Source of the DNA: Candidatus Cloacimonadales bacterium
Lineage (GTDB): Bacteria; Cloacimonadota; Cloacimonadia; Cloacimonadales; JAIOQZ01
Length of the DNA: 64,000 nt
Assembly (NCBI GenBank): GCA_963674825.1
Contig: OY771587.1
Location: 2,688,001-2,752,000 of the forward strand
Reading direction: 5' to 3'
This document shows positions 10,183 through 16,502 of this stretch, piece after piece. A model generated the notes under the pieces. It searched no databases. It saw nothing but the letters and a program-made list of their open reading frames with translations, and had not been told where the DNA came from. The stretch's first letter is position 1. Every line of letters starts with the position of its first letter. Position numbers and translations under genes: made by a program.

Positions 10183-11454
10183 TTATTCATAATGATTGCC
10201 GATCTTCGATCGAATAAACGGTGTTTTTCCACCCTTCGTTTTTTCCAATTCATCTACGATTTCAAAATCTATCTTCATGCTGCTGCCGATTCGCTTACGC
10301 AAACCCTGTTCCAGCGCGTCCTGAGATACTTCGGAATATTGATCGTCCACTACCAGGCGAAAAGTGATATGATCCAGTGCGTCCTGTACGCATTGTGATA
10401 CAATCACGCCTTTTGCCTGATCTACCGAGTGCGACATCACCGCGCCCAGGATGCGCCCGTCCGGCGTGATGATGTGGTCGCAAGCTTTTCCCTGTATCTC
10501 TTTCACCTTGCGAAATGGTCTTCCGCAAGCACAGTTTCCAACTTCCAGCGAAACCAGATCGCGCGTTTTGTAGCGAATCAATGGCATGGAATAGTTATAA
10601 TAGCTGGTTCCGATGAGCCTCCCATCCTCGACTTCCATGAAGCTGAAATCTTCGATCAGGTGCAGCGATCCGTGCTCGCACTGGGAGATCATCGCGCTGC
10701 ATTCGTGCATGGAGTGGAAATCGAACACGGTGGTCTTGTAGAGCGACTCAATCTGCTGCCTGCGGTTTTCGGAGAGCTTCTCACCATATGTGATAACACT
10801 TTTTGGAGAGGGGATCGAGAGTCCGGCATCGGATGCGAATTGCGCGATCATCATGATGTCGAACGGGAATCCGATTATGAAGCGTGGCGGTTTTTTATGC
10901 AGGTATTGGATCAGTTTCAGCGCTGATTCTTTTTGCAGCCTGTTGGAATCGAACCGAATAACGTTGTAAAGCTTATTATGCTGGAAATCGTTCTCCTTGA
11001 AATAGTAACTCTGCACCGATAACGTGCGAATACCGGGACGATAGCCTGCCCAGCCGAAGCTCCGCAGCAGTGCGGCGATCTTGTTTGCCTGAATGGCGTT
11101 GCTCAGCACAAAATGAAGCGGCGTTCCGGTGGAACCGCTGGTGGAGTCCCATGTGATGCCATAGCGTTTAGCCTGGTCGGAGAGCAAGTCCTCCTTTCGA
11201 GTGCGGACAGTTTCTTTGTCCAGGGTGGGAATCCGGTGCATATCCTCGATTCCCTTAAAGGTTGCGGTATCCAAGTCGATCTCGCTGAATAATTGCTTAT
11301 AGTACGGGACATGCGCTCCGGCGTATCGAATGAGGCGGATCAATTGCTCGTTCTGCATAGCTCGCAGTTCCTCCGCACTCCGGAATTGGGATTTCCGGTA
11401 GTATCGTAGCCGTTTCAGGACCGCGAAGGGGATTTGCAGGATCGATTTTTCCAT
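10183..11454 (-). CDS. Phenylacetate-CoA ligase family (CapK-like) adenylating enzyme
   Basis: VPYY, TSGSTGTP P-loop, MPLIRYKTRD, GKTPFI. Confidence 0.85.
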   Translation of the reverse strand: MEKSILQIPFAVLKRLRYYRKSQFRSAEELRAMQNEQLIRLIRYAGAHVPYYKQLFSEIDLDTATFKGIEDMHRIPTLDKETVRTRKEDLLSDQAKRYGITWDSTSGSTGTPLHFVLSNAIQANKIAALLRSFGWAGYRPGIRTLSVQSYYFKENDFQHNKLYNVIRFDSNRLQKESALKLIQYLHKKPPRFIIGFPFDIMMIAQFASDAGLSIPSPKSVITYGEKLSENRRQQIESLYKTTVFDFHSMHECSAMISQCEHGSLHLIEDFSFMEVEDGRLIGTSYYNYSMPLIRYKTRDLVSLEVGNCACGRPFRKVKEIQGKACDHIITPDGRILGAVMSHSVDQAKGVIVSQCVQDALDHITFRLVVDDQYSEVSQDALEQGLRKRIGSSMKIDFEIVDELEKTKGGKTPFIRSKIGNHYE

Positions 11455-11455
11455 G

Positions 11456-12346
11456 TCAGGTCCGGATCATTTTCTGGATATGTTCGTAGCGTTCGATGGT
11501 GTTTCTTGCTTTCTTGAGCATGGGGGGGCCGATGAAGCGTCCGTTAATCACAGCAACGCCTTTCTCTTGTGACTTCGCCAGATCTGTCAGGCGCACCATC
11601 TCCAGTGCTTCCGTGTATTCATCTGCCGAGGGAGTGAAGTGCCGGTGCGCAGGCTCGATCTCCTTCGGGTTCAAGAGCAGCATGCCCTCGAAACCGAGCT
11701 TGCGCGCGATATCGAGGTTGTATTCCAAGTTCTCCATGTTGTGGACATCGACATGAACGGTGTCGATGGGGATGATCCCATGTGAACGTGCGGTGATGGC
11801 TATCTTCGCACGGGGATAAAACAAGCTCTGCGCTTCTGGGTCATGCACGCCATGAAGATCGGTGATGAAGTCTTCGCAGCCGAACGCGATCGCGATGATG
11901 CGCTCCGATGCGCGGCAGATAGAGTCGAGATTAACGACAGCGCCACAGGTCTCGATGATGGGGACAAGCTTGAGCTTGCCCGATTCGATCTGATTTTCGA
12001 TCTCGACAACGTGCATGAGGTGGTCGATGAAAAAGATATCCTTGGCGGTGTAGGTTTTTGGGAAGACGAACCCGGTGATAGCCAGCGGGGCGAAGGTCTT
12101 GACTTCGTCGTTGAGAAACTTGCTATCGACGTCGTTCAGCCGGATGAAGATATGTTTGCCGGTGAAGATTCCTTCTTCTATAAGCTCTTTGCAGAGTCCC
12201 CTCGCCTTGATTTTGTTTGCATCCGGTGTAACCGAATCTTCCATATCGAGGATAACTGCGTCTGTATCGGTAGTAGCGGCTTTACGAAGCAGGCGCTCGT
12301 TGTGTCCCGGTACGAATAGCATTGAACGCAATATATAATCACACAC
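11456..12346 (-). CDS. CitE/HpcH-HpaI family acyl-CoA lyase (malyl-/citramalyl-CoA lyase-like)
   Basis: RSMLFVPG, LDMEDSV, IRLN, PIIET, FGCEDF, LGFEG. Confidence 0.88.
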   Translation of the reverse strand: MCDYILRSMLFVPGHNERLLRKAATTDTDAVILDMEDSVTPDANKIKARGLCKELIEEGIFTGKHIFIRLNDVDSKFLNDEVKTFAPLAITGFVFPKTYTAKDIFFIDHLMHVVEIENQIESGKLKLVPIIETCGAVVNLDSICRASERIIAIAFGCEDFITDLHGVHDPEAQSLFYPRAKIAITARSHGIIPIDTVHVDVHNMENLEYNLDIARKLGFEGMLLLNPKEIEPAHRHFTPSADEYTEALEMVRLTDLAKSQEKGVAVINGRFIGPPMLKKARNTIERYEHIQKMIRT

Positions 12347-12806
12347 GCCTACCTCCTTTTGGGATCAGAACGTTTCGCACAAAGGAGAGTACTTCCGCGC
12401 CATTCTGATTGAACGCTCGCGTACGAACCCGGACGATTCCGCGGTCAGATTTACTGTGTGAGGCACGGACATCGAGTATTTCGGAGGAAGCATGAATGGT
12501 GTCACCGATAAATACTGGCGCGGTATGGCGAATCTCCTCGTAATCGAGGTTCGCGACAGCCTTTCCGCTGATATCACGCACAGTCATGCCCACGACGACA
12601 GAAAAAACGAGCGTTCCAACTACCACGCGCTCTTTGAATTGCGTTGTCGATGCGTATTCGCTATCGAGGTGAAGCGGGTGGTGATTCATGGTCAAAAGAC
12701 AAAAGAGATTGTTATCGCTTTCGGTGATTGTTTTACCAGGATAATGATCGATCATCTCACCATTTGTAAAATCTTCCAGAAACCTGCCATAATCGTTTGC
12801 TTTCAT
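12339..12806 (-). CDS. MaoC-family acyl-CoA hydratase/dehydratase
   Basis: GRFLEDF, TITESDN..F..LTMNHHPLH, PVFIGDTI hot-dog motifs; 8-nt overlap with the CitE-like gene. Confidence 0.88.
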   Translation of the reverse strand: MKANDYGRFLEDFTNGEMIDHYPGKTITESDNNLFCLLTMNHHPLHLDSEYASTTQFKERVVVGTLVFSVVVGMTVRDISGKAVANLDYEEIRHTAPVFIGDTIHASSEILDVRASHSKSDRGIVRVRTRAFNQNGAEVLSFVRNVLIPKGGRRV

Positions 12807-12942: not shown

Positions 12943-14898
12943 TCAGGATTGCTGATTTCTGGTGAGATAATCCCTTCCTCGCTGGGTTATAACGCGATAA
13001 TCTCCTCTACGAACCGTGACGCCCTCACGATCGAATTTATTGATTAACAGGAGACAGATTTTGCGATTTCCGTCGATCAGATCACGGAAAGTTGCGACGG
13101 TTGCGCCTTCTTCGTTCTCGAGAAGATGTTCGAGCAGAATACGTCTGCTGTCGTCAACGATACTGGCGTGGATAAAATTTGCGTCCAGGTTGTACGCTTT
13201 GTTTCTGAATACCAGCAGTTGCAGGATCTGCTTGAGCTTAAGCTCGGGGATGCCCTGGTCGAGAGCGGCTGGCACCATTTGTGACCATAATGGCGTCTGC
13301 ATCTGGCAATCGAGAAGGAATTTTTCGATGAAGTCGATCTGCTGGATATCGCGAGGTGTGAGCTTGACATCGTGCGACTTCAATGCCCAGGTGTGTCCGA
13401 TGCGCTTGAGCTCGCTCTCTGCTTCAAGCTGCTCCAGCACGAGCTGCATGACCGCTTCGGTGGTGGAATCGCGATGGACACCGAAGATACCCATCAATTC
13501 CTCGAACGATCGTCCGCCCTCATCCAGCGGATTCCGTTTGTGATAAGTATTCAGATAGCGGATGATCTTCAGCCGAAGCTTGTCGTATCGCTTACGTTCC
13601 ATCAGGTACGCGACGCTCGGTGTGGAAAGCAGCATGATATCTTCAGGCATATCGCCGGCAATGGCCTTGTCGATCTCAGTACCTGAGATGTTCAGGAGAT
13701 TGGATAGCTCTTCGCTGGTCATGGGGGAGAGGCGTTTGCGGACTTCCGCGGCGATGAGCTCGGGAATGCCGCCCTGTACAACTTCTTTGAGCTTATGGAT
13801 CAGCTCTTCCGGGCGTCTGCGGTGATGCAGTGGATGCGCGTCGATAACTTCACCGCCACCAAGCGTAAGGTCGCTGGAGCTGTTACGGATAACAAATTTA
13901 TCGCCATGCATCAGCACGGCAGGTGCTTCCAGGTGGATCTGAACGATTGCAGTGTCGCCGCCGTCGAGGCGGTCTTTGTCGATGAGGTGGACGCGTGCCT
14001 GCCCTGCGTAGGTTCCCAGCAGGAATATGACCTGCGACCAGAGGTTAAGCGGTTTGGCATGATCGTAAAGCTTAAGCCGGGCGTCGATCATGCGCGTGGA
14101 AGGCAGGATGCGGTCGCTGACCAGCATGCCGCGCTTGTATTGGTCGATATCGAGACCGACCAGATTCATGGAAGCACGGTCACCGGTTGATATTCGCTGC
14201 ACTTCGCCACCGTGGCGTTCAAGCCTTCTGGCACGTAGTTTGTCACCGGTCGGGAGCAGATAGACGTTTGCTGAACGGTTCAGTTCTCCGCTGATCACTG
14301 AACCATTGACGATGGTTCCGTGGCCGGGAATGTTGAAAATACGGTCGATATACATACGGAAAATTTCACCTGATTCCCGTTCCGGGATATCCTGTGATAT
14401 TGCTTCCAGATGCTCGATCAATTCTGGGATGCCCTCGCCGGTTTTCGCGGAGACCTTCACGATAGGTGCGTTTTCGAAGGCGGTATCTTCCACCAACTCA
14501 CGGATATCGATTTCAGCGAACTCGAGCAATTCCTGATCGACCAGGTCTATCTTGGTAAGAACGATGATACCCTTTTCGATGCCGAGGGTGCGGATGATCT
14601 GAAGATGTTCGCGTGTTTGTGGCATCACGCCGCTGTCTGCCGCGATGACCAGCAATACAAAATCGATTCCGCTTGCGCCGGAGACCATCGTATTGACGAA
14701 GTCCGCGTGGCCCGGGACATCGACGATGCCGAGGCTGTTTCCGCTGGGGAGATCGAGGTGACTGAATCCCAGATGGATGGTGATTCCGCGCAATTGCTCT
14801 TCTTTATGGGTGTCGCAGTTGAAGCCGGTGAGCTGCTCGATGAGTGTGGTTTTTCCGTGGTCGATATGACCGGCTGTCCCCATGATCAGGTGTTTCAT
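12943..14898 (-). CDS. selB: Selenocysteine-specific elongation factor SelB
   Basis: GTAGHIDHGKT, RGITI, DVPGH, TKID G-motifs; C-terminal winged-helix end FRDLIDGNRK...RRGDYR; follows selA. Confidence 0.95.
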   Translation of the reverse strand: MKHLIMGTAGHIDHGKTTLIEQLTGFNCDTHKEEQLRGITIHLGFSHLDLPSGNSLGIVDVPGHADFVNTMVSGASGIDFVLLVIAADSGVMPQTREHLQIIRTLGIEKGIIVLTKIDLVDQELLEFAEIDIRELVEDTAFENAPIVKVSAKTGEGIPELIEHLEAISQDIPERESGEIFRMYIDRIFNIPGHGTIVNGSVISGELNRSANVYLLPTGDKLRARRLERHGGEVQRISTGDRASMNLVGLDIDQYKRGMLVSDRILPSTRMIDARLKLYDHAKPLNLWSQVIFLLGTYAGQARVHLIDKDRLDGGDTAIVQIHLEAPAVLMHGDKFVIRNSSSDLTLGGGEVIDAHPLHHRRRPEELIHKLKEVVQGGIPELIAAEVRKRLSPMTSEELSNLLNISGTEIDKAIAGDMPEDIMLLSTPSVAYLMERKRYDKLRLKIIRYLNTYHKRNPLDEGGRSFEELMGIFGVHRDSTTEAVMQLVLEQLEAESELKRIGHTWALKSHDVKLTPRDIQQIDFIEKFLLDCQMQTPLWSQMVPAALDQGIPELKLKQILQLLVFRNKAYNLDANFIHASIVDDSRRILLEHLLENEEGATVATFRDLIDGNRKICLLLINKFDREGVTVRRGDYRVITQRGRDYLTRNQQS

Positions 14899-14905
14899 GA
14901 ATGCC

Positions 14906-16291
14906 TCAATCCTTCAGGTCGGAGATCCAGCGAGCAATGATCGCGAACTGGTCGGGCTGGAGTGTGAAAACATCGAACATGAGCTTGCCTTCGCGCAGGA
15001 TGCCTACAACCGGTTTATCGGCTTGCATGAGCGCTTTCCAAATTCGTTCAGCCCATAATTTATCCTGCCTGGGCGGCAATGCCTGTACGGCAAGGCTTGG
15101 GATGCTTAGATGCGGAAGTGTTCCTCCACCGCAATAGGCTATGCTTTCGATGATCTCGGACGCGATTCCTTCCTTTGCCATCGATTCGATAAACTGCTCG
15201 GCCTTGGCGCGAAGTTCGCCCGGCGTCTGGTTAAGCAAGCTGAAAAGCGGTAACCGCGATTTCAGGCTGTCGTCGTCGATGTAGCAGCGAATAACTGCGG
15301 AAAGGGCCGCGAGGGTGAGTTTTCCGGTTCTTAGCGCGCGCATCATGGGTGCTTTGGCGATCTTGCGGATGTGTTCCTGCTTGCCGGCGATAATGCCAGC
15401 CTGCGGACCGCCCAGAAGTTTATCACCGCTGAAACACACGATGTCGACACCTGCGTCGATGGTGCTGCGAATGTCGGGTTCGTTCTGAAGCGGCAGTCCC
15501 TTGGGCTTGCGCAACAGTCCTGAACCGATGTCGTAGATGAAAATAAGGTTGTGCTTGCGTGCGAGATCGACCATCTCCTCGATTTCTGGCTCTTCGGTGA
15601 AGCCGCCGATGAAGTAGTTTGAGCGATGCGCTTTGAGGATGACGCGCGTTTTATCGGTGATGGCGTTTTCGTAGTCACCGATGCGTGTACGGTTTGTGGT
15701 GCCTACTTCTATCATCTTCGCACCACTGGCAGCCATGATGTCCGGCAGGCGAAAGGAGCCGCCGATCTCGATCAATTCACCGCGCGAGACGATCACTTCG
15801 CTTCCTTCTGCAAAGGTCTTGAGGCTAAGCATGACGCCAGCTGCGTTGTTGTTGACTACCACAGCGTCATCTGCACCGGTAACCCACCGGATCAGGTGAG
15901 AAATGTGGGTTTCTCGTTTACCACGTTTCCCTTCGTCGAGGTCGTATTCAAGATTGCTGTAGCCACGAATGATGGGGGTTAACTCGCCCAGGACGTAGTC
16001 ACCCAATGGTGCTCTGCCGAGATTGGTATGGATAACCACACCGGTCGCGTTGATCACCGGTATAAGGGACGGTTTTGCGATCCTGCGACAGCGTGTTTCG
16101 ATATTGTTAATAATCTCTTGAACCGGGATCGCCTTGCCACCATCGAGGATACTTTTGCGGATGTCTTCGAGTTCTTGCCGGATGGATAGTGTGACCAATT
16201 GCGGTCCGTAGCTTTGGATCAATTCCAGGGTCGATTTATCAGTGAGTAGGGTGTCAACGCCGGGGATTTTCTTGAACTCTTCCTGTCTCAT
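14906..16291 (-). CDS. selA: L-seryl-tRNA(Sec) selenium transferase SelA
   Basis: INATGVVIHTNLGRA, VNNNAA, SRGELIEIGGSFR, FSGDKLLGGPQAG; true start MRQEEFKK at 16291 (the ORF-track extension to 16414 runs through the tRNA gene). Confidence 0.95.
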   Translation of the reverse strand: MRQEEFKKIPGVDTLLTDKSTLELIQSYGPQLVTLSIRQELEDIRKSILDGGKAIPVQEIINNIETRCRRIAKPSLIPVINATGVVIHTNLGRAPLGDYVLGELTPIIRGYSNLEYDLDEGKRGKRETHISHLIRWVTGADDAVVVNNNAAGVMLSLKTFAEGSEVIVSRGELIEIGGSFRLPDIMAASGAKMIEVGTTNRTRIGDYENAITDKTRVILKAHRSNYFIGGFTEEPEIEEMVDLARKHNLIFIYDIGSGLLRKPKGLPLQNEPDIRSTIDAGVDIVCFSGDKLLGGPQAGIIAGKQEHIRKIAKAPMMRALRTGKLTLAALSAVIRCYIDDDSLKSRLPLFSLLNQTPGELRAKAEQFIESMAKEGIASEIIESIAYCGGGTLPHLSIPSLAVQALPPRQDKLWAERIWKALMQADKPVVGILREGKLMFDVFTLQPDQFAIIARWISDLKD

Positions 16292-16326
16292 ATTCACAGC
16301 CTGGTTATGTTGTTTTGGGTTGAAAA

Positions 16327-16421
16327 TGGCTGAGAGGGCAGGAATCGAACCTGCCACGGACGGTATTATCCGCCCGATACTGGCTTTGCAGACCAGCCGG
16401 ACCACCAGATCCATCCTCCCG
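16327..16421 (-). tRNA. selC: tRNA-Sec-type tRNA (selC) with GCA (Cys) anticodon, 7/5 fold
   Basis: Reverse complement reads CGGGAGG-AT-GGATC TGGT GGTCC-G-GCTGGT CTGCAAA GCCAGT-AT-CGGGCGG ATAATA CCGTCCG-TG-GCAGG TTCGATT CCTGC-CCTCTCA-G-CCA. It has a long D-stem with 4-nt loop, 6-bp anticodon stem, long variable arm, G73 and encoded CCA, and lies 35 nt upstream of selA. Confidence 0.92.
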
Positions 16422-16502
16422 CACGTGGTTTCCTTTTTGCGCTACGGCTTTTCATCCGTCAACGAAAAACTTGCCGTTGTCAAACTTCTTCCATAGCGTT
16501 CA

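Follow-up and report, generated by a model that had tools for sequence, protein, structure and literature searches.

The selA–selB locus and its tRNA

This account concerns a tRNA gene in a stretch of 64,000 nucleotides (nt) from the genome of Candidatus Cloacimonadales bacterium (GCA_963674825.1, contig OY771587.1, positions 2,688,001 to 2,752,000; referred to below as the window). The gene encodes a tRNA of the selenocysteine (Sec) type whose anticodon is GCA, and it heads selA and selB (Table 1). The evidence set out here suggests that this bacterium and a number of its relatives write Sec with cysteine codons that are marked by a downstream hairpin. The genome to which the window belongs, designated G000, is a single contig of 3.89 Mb (C1); the numbers from G001 upward denote relatives.

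Table 1 Features of the window and of the remainder of genome G000
Feature	Location	Strand	Basis and remarks
Sec-type tRNA, anticodon GCA	window 16327..16421	minus	95 nt; Rfam, ARAGORN and register of the CCA
Anticodon G34-C35-A36	window 16387..16389	minus	direct reading of the sequence; loop CUGCAAA; G34 is base 16389
selA (L-seryl-tRNA(Sec) selenium transferase)	window 14906..16291	minus	TIGR00474, 529.9 bits (cut-off 267.9)
selB (SelB1, Sec-specific elongation factor)	window 12943..14898	minus	TIGR00475, 335.2 bits (cut-off 242.25)
Three genes following selB	window 10183-12806	minus	MaoC/RipB-like enoyl-CoA hydratase, CitE/RipC-like lyase, acyl-CoA ligase-like gene
Second tRNA-Sec, anticodon UCA	G000:C1:1971717-1971811		RF01852, 58.8 bits
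Second selB (SelB2)	G000:C1:1971860-1973665		adjoins the UCA tRNA in divergent orientation
selD	G000:C1:133302-134423		TGT at 134294, then a stem of 8 bp with loop CGUGU
selD_A	G000:C1:153552-155801		749 amino acids; active-site codon TGC
Two T9SS-type protein genes	G000:C1:81208 and 83536	minus	WCGYCP or WCPYCP motif at the start

The Rfam tRNA-Sec model RF01852 matches positions 16330-16424 with a score of 54.8 bits (E 2.5e-8; gathering score 47) and is the sole Rfam family matched anywhere in the window. ARAGORN likewise calls only one tRNA in the window, a tRNA-Cys(gca) at 16331-16420, whose 3′ end, the A at 16331, would give A73 without a CCA. Because the 3′ end reads ...CUCUC-A-G-CCA, and because CCA is encoded in all 52 other tRNA genes of the genome, we place the tRNA at 16421 to 16327, with G73 and an encoded CCA. 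G73 is found in each of the 114 distinct tRNAs of this type in our homologue alignment, and CCA in each of the 20 distinct GCA forms.

The tRNA has a 7 base pair (bp) acceptor stem, a single A8 linker and a 5-bp T-stem, giving an acceptor/T branch of 7/5, or 12 bp, rather than the canonical 13 bp (8/5 in bacteria). The D-stem comprises five firm pairs plus U9.G24 and carries the loop UGGU; the sixth D-arm pair (9:24), which would complete the 6-bp stem with 4-nt loop that acts as a SelA determinant, is paired in only 57 of the 114 homologues. The anticodon stem is 6 bp and the variable-arm stem 7 bp. Where tRNA-Sec is expected to carry UCA this tRNA has GCA, and its anticodon loop is identical in all 20 distinct GCA-type homologues. 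The tRNA combines G73 with a long variable arm, the identity elements of seryl-tRNA synthetase (SerRS; PMC5389517). Its body is homologous to that of the UCA tRNA-Sec of its own genome and of other phyla, with a shared T-arm and 3′ acceptor strand. Across the 114 homologues, the occurrence of several Watson–Crick pair types at 11:22, 12:21, 13:20, 27:41, 46:65, 47:64 and 51:60 supports the cloverleaf.

Two acceptor pairs are unusual. In the CCA register, the first (16421 with 16331) is a non-Watson–Crick C1.A72. Position 1:72 falls into correlated classes among the homologues (A-U, A.G, C.A and a few others), and in the Cloacimonadota it is rarely Watson–Crick, C.A occurring mostly with GCA and A.G mostly with UCA, with A-U in other phyla. 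The six pairs that follow are always paired, including in a GCGAGG/CCUCGC variant. The third acceptor pair (16419 with 16333) is G3.U70 in the window's genus and in 7 of the 114 distinct homologues overall, the UCA tRNAs of family f12 among them.

The GCA anticodon is not an assembly error. Over the tRNA, the Logan contigs do not differ from the window in runs X1 and X2, which come from one sample that may be the source, or in X3, which comes from another sample of that study. A 180-nt contig from run X4, from another study, shows eight differences, all at 16296-16322 and none inside the tRNA; since these independent contigs agree and the GCA tRNA recurs across the phylum, in 24 of 201 sampled genomes, such an error is ruled out. 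The original prediction, made from the window alone, had described a Sec-type tRNA with a GCA anticodon heading selA–selB, with a 5-6 bp D-stem, a UGGU loop, a 6-bp anticodon stem, a 7-bp variable arm, G73 and CCA. Rfam, direct reading and gene order bear out this identification, the anatomy holds, and base 16389, on which the anticodon turns, lies in the tRNA interval without differences in the contigs of all four runs.

In the listed open reading frame (ORF), the first 41 codons of which overlap the tRNA, the selA profile aligns only from residue 48 onward; the start is likely to be the ATG at 16291, 35 nt past the CCA of the tRNA. No terminator-like site was found on the minus strand between the two genes. 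This is the single selA match in the whole genome, and selA is single-copy in every genome that has it. The order tRNA(GCA)–selA–selB is found in G000-G003, G006 and G017, and in G004, G007 and G017 the fdhA gene lies directly upstream of tRNA(GCA), which is followed by selA.

The codon at the Sec site follows the anticodon

Forty nearest relatives were used for counts of the Sec machinery: 18 have only the GCA tRNA, 10 only the UCA tRNA, 3 both (4 with G000) and 9 neither. The SelD active site was inspected at 30 loci. The codon is TGA in nine (eight UCA-only genomes and G015) and TGC or TGT (TGY) in 21 (17 GCA-only genomes together with G000, G002, G003 and G033). A TGA flagged in the selD matches of G001 and G002 lies upstream of the start codon.

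FdhA, matched in 17 genomes, follows the same pattern. A single in-frame TGA is present in two UCA-only genomes (G011 and G035), and none is seen in the 15 others (14 GCA-only genomes and G015). The codon was confirmed at the U/C-H-S-S-T site in 15 of the 17 loci, the motif having missed G017 and G011. Both codon states occur inside family f11, and G015, which has both tRNAs, has TGA in SelD and TGC in FdhA. The large subunit of [NiFe] hydrogenase, with its DPC..C motif, served as a control: none of 12 matches has an in-frame stop, including those of the UCA-only genomes G030 and G040, and the switch between TGA and TGY is therefore not general to active-site cysteines.

SECIS-like hairpins behind both kinds of codon

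The FdhA codon is followed by a hairpin, GUGGCC-GGUCU-GGCUGC, with 18 nt from codon to loop, and this is present behind both TGA and TGY. In an alignment of 15 sequences, 92.4% of cells are paired and four of the seven pairs have changed on both sides, a result as high as which was seen in none of 500 shuffles; the set included G022, even though the FdhA of that genome has no hairpin. At one pair, both members of which are third-codon positions, GC occurs six times, AU four times and UA twice.

The SelD hairpin, UUAGGRC-CGUGY-GYCUUAA, has 16 nt from codon to loop. Its register is common to the TGA genes (loop GGG or CGGGG, peptide KLGPGVL) and the TGY genes (loop CGUGY, peptide KLGPCVL or KLGPCAL). 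Among 13 sequences, a set that excludes three TGA sequences with the hairpin in another register (G026, G031 and G019), 87.5% of cells are paired, two of eight pairs are compensatory and the covariation score was reached in 1 of 500 shuffles.

Bacterial selenocysteine insertion sequence (SECIS) elements are described as having their apical loop 16-37 nt from the codon (PMC10778597) and a G at the first or second loop position (PMC13582414). Both hairpins conform to these rules of distance and loop sequence. A known selenoprotein gene with the codon that matches the GCA anticodon, followed by a SECIS-like hairpin, is present as selD in G000 and as the SelD and FdhA genes of its relatives.

A second tRNA-Sec and a second SelB

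Elsewhere in G000 are an ordinary tRNA-Cys(GCA) with U73, one ordinary cysS with no cysS*, two selD genes, and a second tRNA-Sec, with anticodon UCA, that adjoins a second selB. The T-arm and 3′ acceptor strand are identical in the two Sec-type tRNAs, and SelB1 and SelB2 are 35% identical over 645 residues. The hairpin-bearing gene described above is one of the two selD genes. The other, selD_A, has a fused N-terminal domain resembling NifS-like cysteine desulfurase or selenocysteine lyase; no clear hairpin follows its active-site codon in G000. In G014 and G024, selD_A has a hairpin with loop CGUGYU at the same site.

The four genomes with both tRNAs, and no others, have two SelBs; each of the 26 remaining genomes in which SelB was found has one. 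In G015, one SelB adjoins the UCA tRNA and the other adjoins selA. We built a quick IQ-TREE tree of 32 SelBs, leaving out those of G005 (in-frame TAG) and G014 (partial). SelB1 and the selA-linked SelB of G015 belong to a clade (SH-aLRT 99) that takes in every SelB from a GCA-only genome as well as family f12, and the UCA-linked SelB of G015 is placed among those of UCA-only genomes. The SelB2 of the window's genus forms a long separate branch. No closer relative of SelB2 was found in 114 genomes of the class, and neither SelB2 nor the UCA tRNA was found in G001. Between congeners, SelB2 is 58-59% identical and SelB1 87-88%, so that SelB2 evolves fast by comparison. By inspection, the variable arms of the tRNAs are of two kinds that roughly track the two SelB groups.

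Searches for further targets

The genome was screened for TGA-containing selenoprotein genes by means of read-through ORFs, hexamer scoring, Pfam and proximity to cysteine residues. These screens were not exhaustive, and they found neither a TGA selenoprotein gene in G000 nor, in consequence, a target for the UCA tRNA and SelB2; no evident selenoprotein gene lies near that pair either. Two read-through ORF screens were too noisy for use. Hexamer scoring retained 77 of 343 candidates, mostly neighbouring genes in frame, and Pfam found no domain spanning the TGA in 20 candidates. A further 19 TGA sites with a cysteine no more than three residues away (10 of them printed in full) were rejected because they resembled frames that are antisense or non-coding.

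FdhA was not found in G000 or its genus, and GrdB was found only in G019. When the genome was scanned for TGY codons followed by a hairpin with the strict loop CGUGY, selD was the only credible gene. Two adjacent genes for secreted proteins of the type IX secretion system (T9SS) kind have a thioredoxin-like motif near the start, the first cysteine codon of which is followed by a hairpin with the loop of the FdhA SECIS, GGUCU; this may be chance. The three genes that come right after selB in the window have no evident link to selenium.

Distribution in the phylum

A scan that took a single genome from each species found at least 120 loci with the shared T-arm/acceptor motif. Titled records among the matches listed place this type of tRNA-Sec in the Cloacimonadota, Bacteroidales, Fibrobacterota, Ignavibacteria, Lentisphaeria, Kiritimatiellae, Spirochaetota and others. 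The GCA anticodon occurs in 11 of 120 loci among the matches listed, and all seven of those with a displayed title are from the Cloacimonadota. Within the phylum, the GCA form is spread over 16 of the 61 genera sampled, and the UCA form is present in 55 of 158 genomes of at least 90% completeness. The two are found together only in G000, G002 and G003, which belong to one genus, and in G015, which belongs to another family.

The machinery is largely retained alongside the GCA tRNA: of the 18 GCA-only genomes, 15 yielded selA (those in which it was missed are 82%, 68% and 88% complete), 14 selB and 17 selD. Family f3 seems to lack the trait altogether, with the GCA form in 0 of 88 genomes and the UCA form in 0 of 69, and the five members of f3 among the 40 relatives yielded no selD, selB or selA.

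Probable selenocysteine at marked cysteine codons

Taken together, these results point to a true tRNA-Sec in which the anticodon UCA has been replaced by GCA, with Sec probably written by hairpin-marked cysteine codons; we put the probability of this at roughly 80%. SerRS would charge the tRNA with serine by way of G73 and the long variable arm, and the genome's single SelA would turn the serine into Sec with selenophosphate from SelD. SelB1 would then deliver the Sec-tRNA to ribosomes paused at UGC or UGU with the apical loop of a SECIS 16-18 nt downstream. Unmarked cysteine codons would be read by the ordinary tRNA-Cys and elongation factor Tu (EF-Tu), and where the ordinary tRNA-Cys read a marked codon the cysteine form of the enzyme would result.

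Recoding of SECIS-marked cysteine codons to Sec was the proposal of the original prediction, and the codon switch in SelD and FdhA, together with the hairpins, supports it at the level of sequence. The prediction looked to selD and to cysteine codons with hairpins at Sec sites, both of which are present, but it also listed a second tRNA-Sec with anticodon UCA as a possible refutation. Such a tRNA exists, with a selB of its own. Since no TGA selenoprotein gene was found in the non-exhaustive screens described above, and since selD uses TGT, its presence does not refute Sec at cysteine codons.

A number of points weigh against this reading. The G3.U70 pair is the alanine identity pair, and some charging of the GCA tRNA by alanyl-tRNA synthetase is conceivable. 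Similarly, the GCA anticodon is itself a strong identity element for cysteinyl-tRNA synthetase (CysRS), so that some charging with cysteine is possible. Sec-tRNA bound to SelB would face competition from Cys-tRNA, which is abundant, with EF-Tu. The association of codon with anticodon rests on few independent events, since the relatives are kin. The hairpins lie in conserved coding sequence and the protein explains part of their conservation, but not the synonymous compensatory changes. In family f6, which carries the GCA tRNA, selA and selB, SelD (GGCSAKLSP) has TGY without a recognisable hairpin, and in FdhA the hairpin is missing behind TGY in the f6 genome G022 and present in G012, G028 and G038. 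In G000 itself selD is the single TGY target identified, and a relaxed search (loop NGUNN, stem of 7 bp or more) yielded 10 TGY matches with no enrichment over other codons. Finally, fossil SECIS-like hairpins after cysteine codons have been reported in Cys-type relatives of selenoenzymes (PMC13582414).

Could the GCA tRNA instead insert cysteine, in imitation of a tRNA-Sec? CysRS would then charge it and SelB would deliver it, placing cysteine at SECIS-marked codons in the manner of the selC*/tRNAReC systems. The GCA anticodon, the Sec-like cloverleaf and the downstream selB are all features of selC* tRNA-Cys (PMC5389517), yet position 73 is G and not U in all 20 GCA forms, whereas a terminal U, in most cases as U-CCA, is common to the 54 published selC* sequences. 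Moreover, selA sits between the tRNA and selB and is kept in those 15 GCA-only genomes, the single cysS is an ordinary one and cysS* is absent, and the delivery of cysteine to a cysteine codon would gain nothing. We regard insertion of cysteine as very unlikely.

According to a second alternative, SelD and FdhA are ordinary cysteine enzymes with fossil hairpins, and the tRNA and sel genes are left over or serve only selenouridine or cofactor routes. The reported fossil hairpins, the single target in G000 and the f6 SelD without a hairpin would all fit such a relic. It does not account, however, for an anticodon change that matches the new codon exactly, for the retention of the GCA tRNA across 16 of 61 sampled genera with an invariant CUGCAAA loop, or for the compensatory synonymous changes that keep the FdhA hairpin in TGY-only genomes. 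Nor does it account for an intact selA beside the tRNA, a gene for which we know of no use beyond the making of Sec-tRNA. A relic of this kind appears very unlikely.

Least probable of all is that UGA remains the codon read by the GCA tRNA, by way of a G34.A mismatch under SelB tethering, the cysteine codons being irrelevant: UCA and GCA forms of tRNAReC are both said to mediate SECIS-dependent UGA recoding (Vargas-Rodriguez 2018 as cited in PMC13582414), but in GCA-only genomes the Sec sites have TGY rather than TGA in 17 of 17 SelD and 14 of 14 FdhA genes, and the non-exhaustive TGA screens of G000 found no selenoprotein gene.

If Sec is indeed written with marked cysteine codons, then the coexistence of two tRNAs and two SelBs in some genomes suggests a further step, which we offer tentatively and at slightly less than even odds. 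The Cloacimonadales may have been caught in the middle of moving their Sec codon from UGA to UGC/UGU, with two tRNA–SelB pairs, one for UGA and one for marked cysteine codons, sharing one SelA. Both pairs would be in use in G015; in the window's genus the target would have switched and the UGA pair would be decaying.

Relation to known systems

Natural forms of tRNA-Sec that bear sense anticodons, and Sec at the cysteine codon UGU in Aeromonas salmonicida, have been described (Mukai 2016, as cited in PMC10778597, PMC6267555 and PMC8124441). The present tRNA is of the same kind, having a tRNA-Sec body with GCA, a 12-bp acceptor/T branch and, probably, a SECIS-marked cysteine codon for Sec. It differs from the A. 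salmonicida case in that it belongs to another phylum, in that the trait extends over many genera, and in that a UCA tRNA-Sec and a second SelB coexist with it in four genomes. A 'Cloacimonetes type' of tRNA-Sec has also been defined, with a 7/5 branch of 12 bp and one linker nucleotide fewer (PMC5330540, which credits Mukai 2016). The GCA tRNA matches this type in its 7-bp acceptor stem, single A8, D-stem closable by 9:24, and G73. The passage describing the type is silent on the anticodon (PMC5330540), and the type is shared with the Bacteroidales, Fibrobacterota, Ignavibacteria and others, all of which have UCA among the matches listed. A literature search on Cloacimonetes with tRNASec or selenocysteine, the scope of which did not extend to Mukai 2016 itself, returned only PMC5330540 as relevant.

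The selC*/tRNAReC systems comprise a Cys-charged tRNA with U73, behind which lies selB* (PMC5389517, PMC7609411). The likeness consists of a GCA-bearing tRNA of Sec-like form, accompanied in the genome by a complete Sec system and by an additional selB. The differences are G73 instead of U73, and probable charging by SerRS and SelA instead of CysRS. The arrangement of genes is also different: in selC* systems it is selB* that follows the odd tRNA, whereas here selA and the mainstream SelB follow the GCA tRNA and it is the divergent SelB that adjoins the UCA tRNA. When compared by eye with the 54 sequences in the supplement to PMC5389517, no group shares the acceptor, D or T arms of the GCA tRNA. 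The original prediction had judged the tRNA to be neither an ordinary tRNA-Cys nor of the selC* type, and both this comparison and the presence of G73 in place of U73 agree with it.

In comparison with the selC–selA–selB–selD system of Escherichia coli, the same four components are present, the hairpin lies right 3′ of the codon, and FdhA and SelD are classic targets. Unlike in E. coli, the proposed codon is UGY and not UGA, which would mean competition with Cys-tRNA rather than with release factor RF2, the branch is 12 bp and not 13 bp, and the first acceptor pair is mismatched. A survey from 2026 counted a long tRNA as SelC only if it had UCA with G or A73, and as tRNAReC only if it had U73 (PMC13582414); a tRNA with GCA and G73 would escape both classes. 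Sec at a cysteine codon is already known in principle, and the parts most likely to be new may be the paired duplication of tRNA and SelB and the apparent transition from UGA to UGY.

Implications

Software that searches for in-frame TGA would call bacteria of this kind selenoprotein-poor or Sec-free in spite of their full machinery, and SelD and FdhA would here be annotated as plain cysteine enzymes. For the organism, writing Sec with a cysteine codon would avoid the risk of termination and leave a working cysteine enzyme when selenium is short. In the case of SelD itself, a working cysteine form would allow the Sec system to be started. Genomes in which two tRNAs and two SelBs coexist lend themselves to a ready test of parallel Sec channels, which would be of direct use in selenoprotein engineering. 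If the tentative account of a codon in transit is true, these Cloacimonadales would present a natural intermediate of codon reassignment together with natural two-channel insertion of Sec within one cell.
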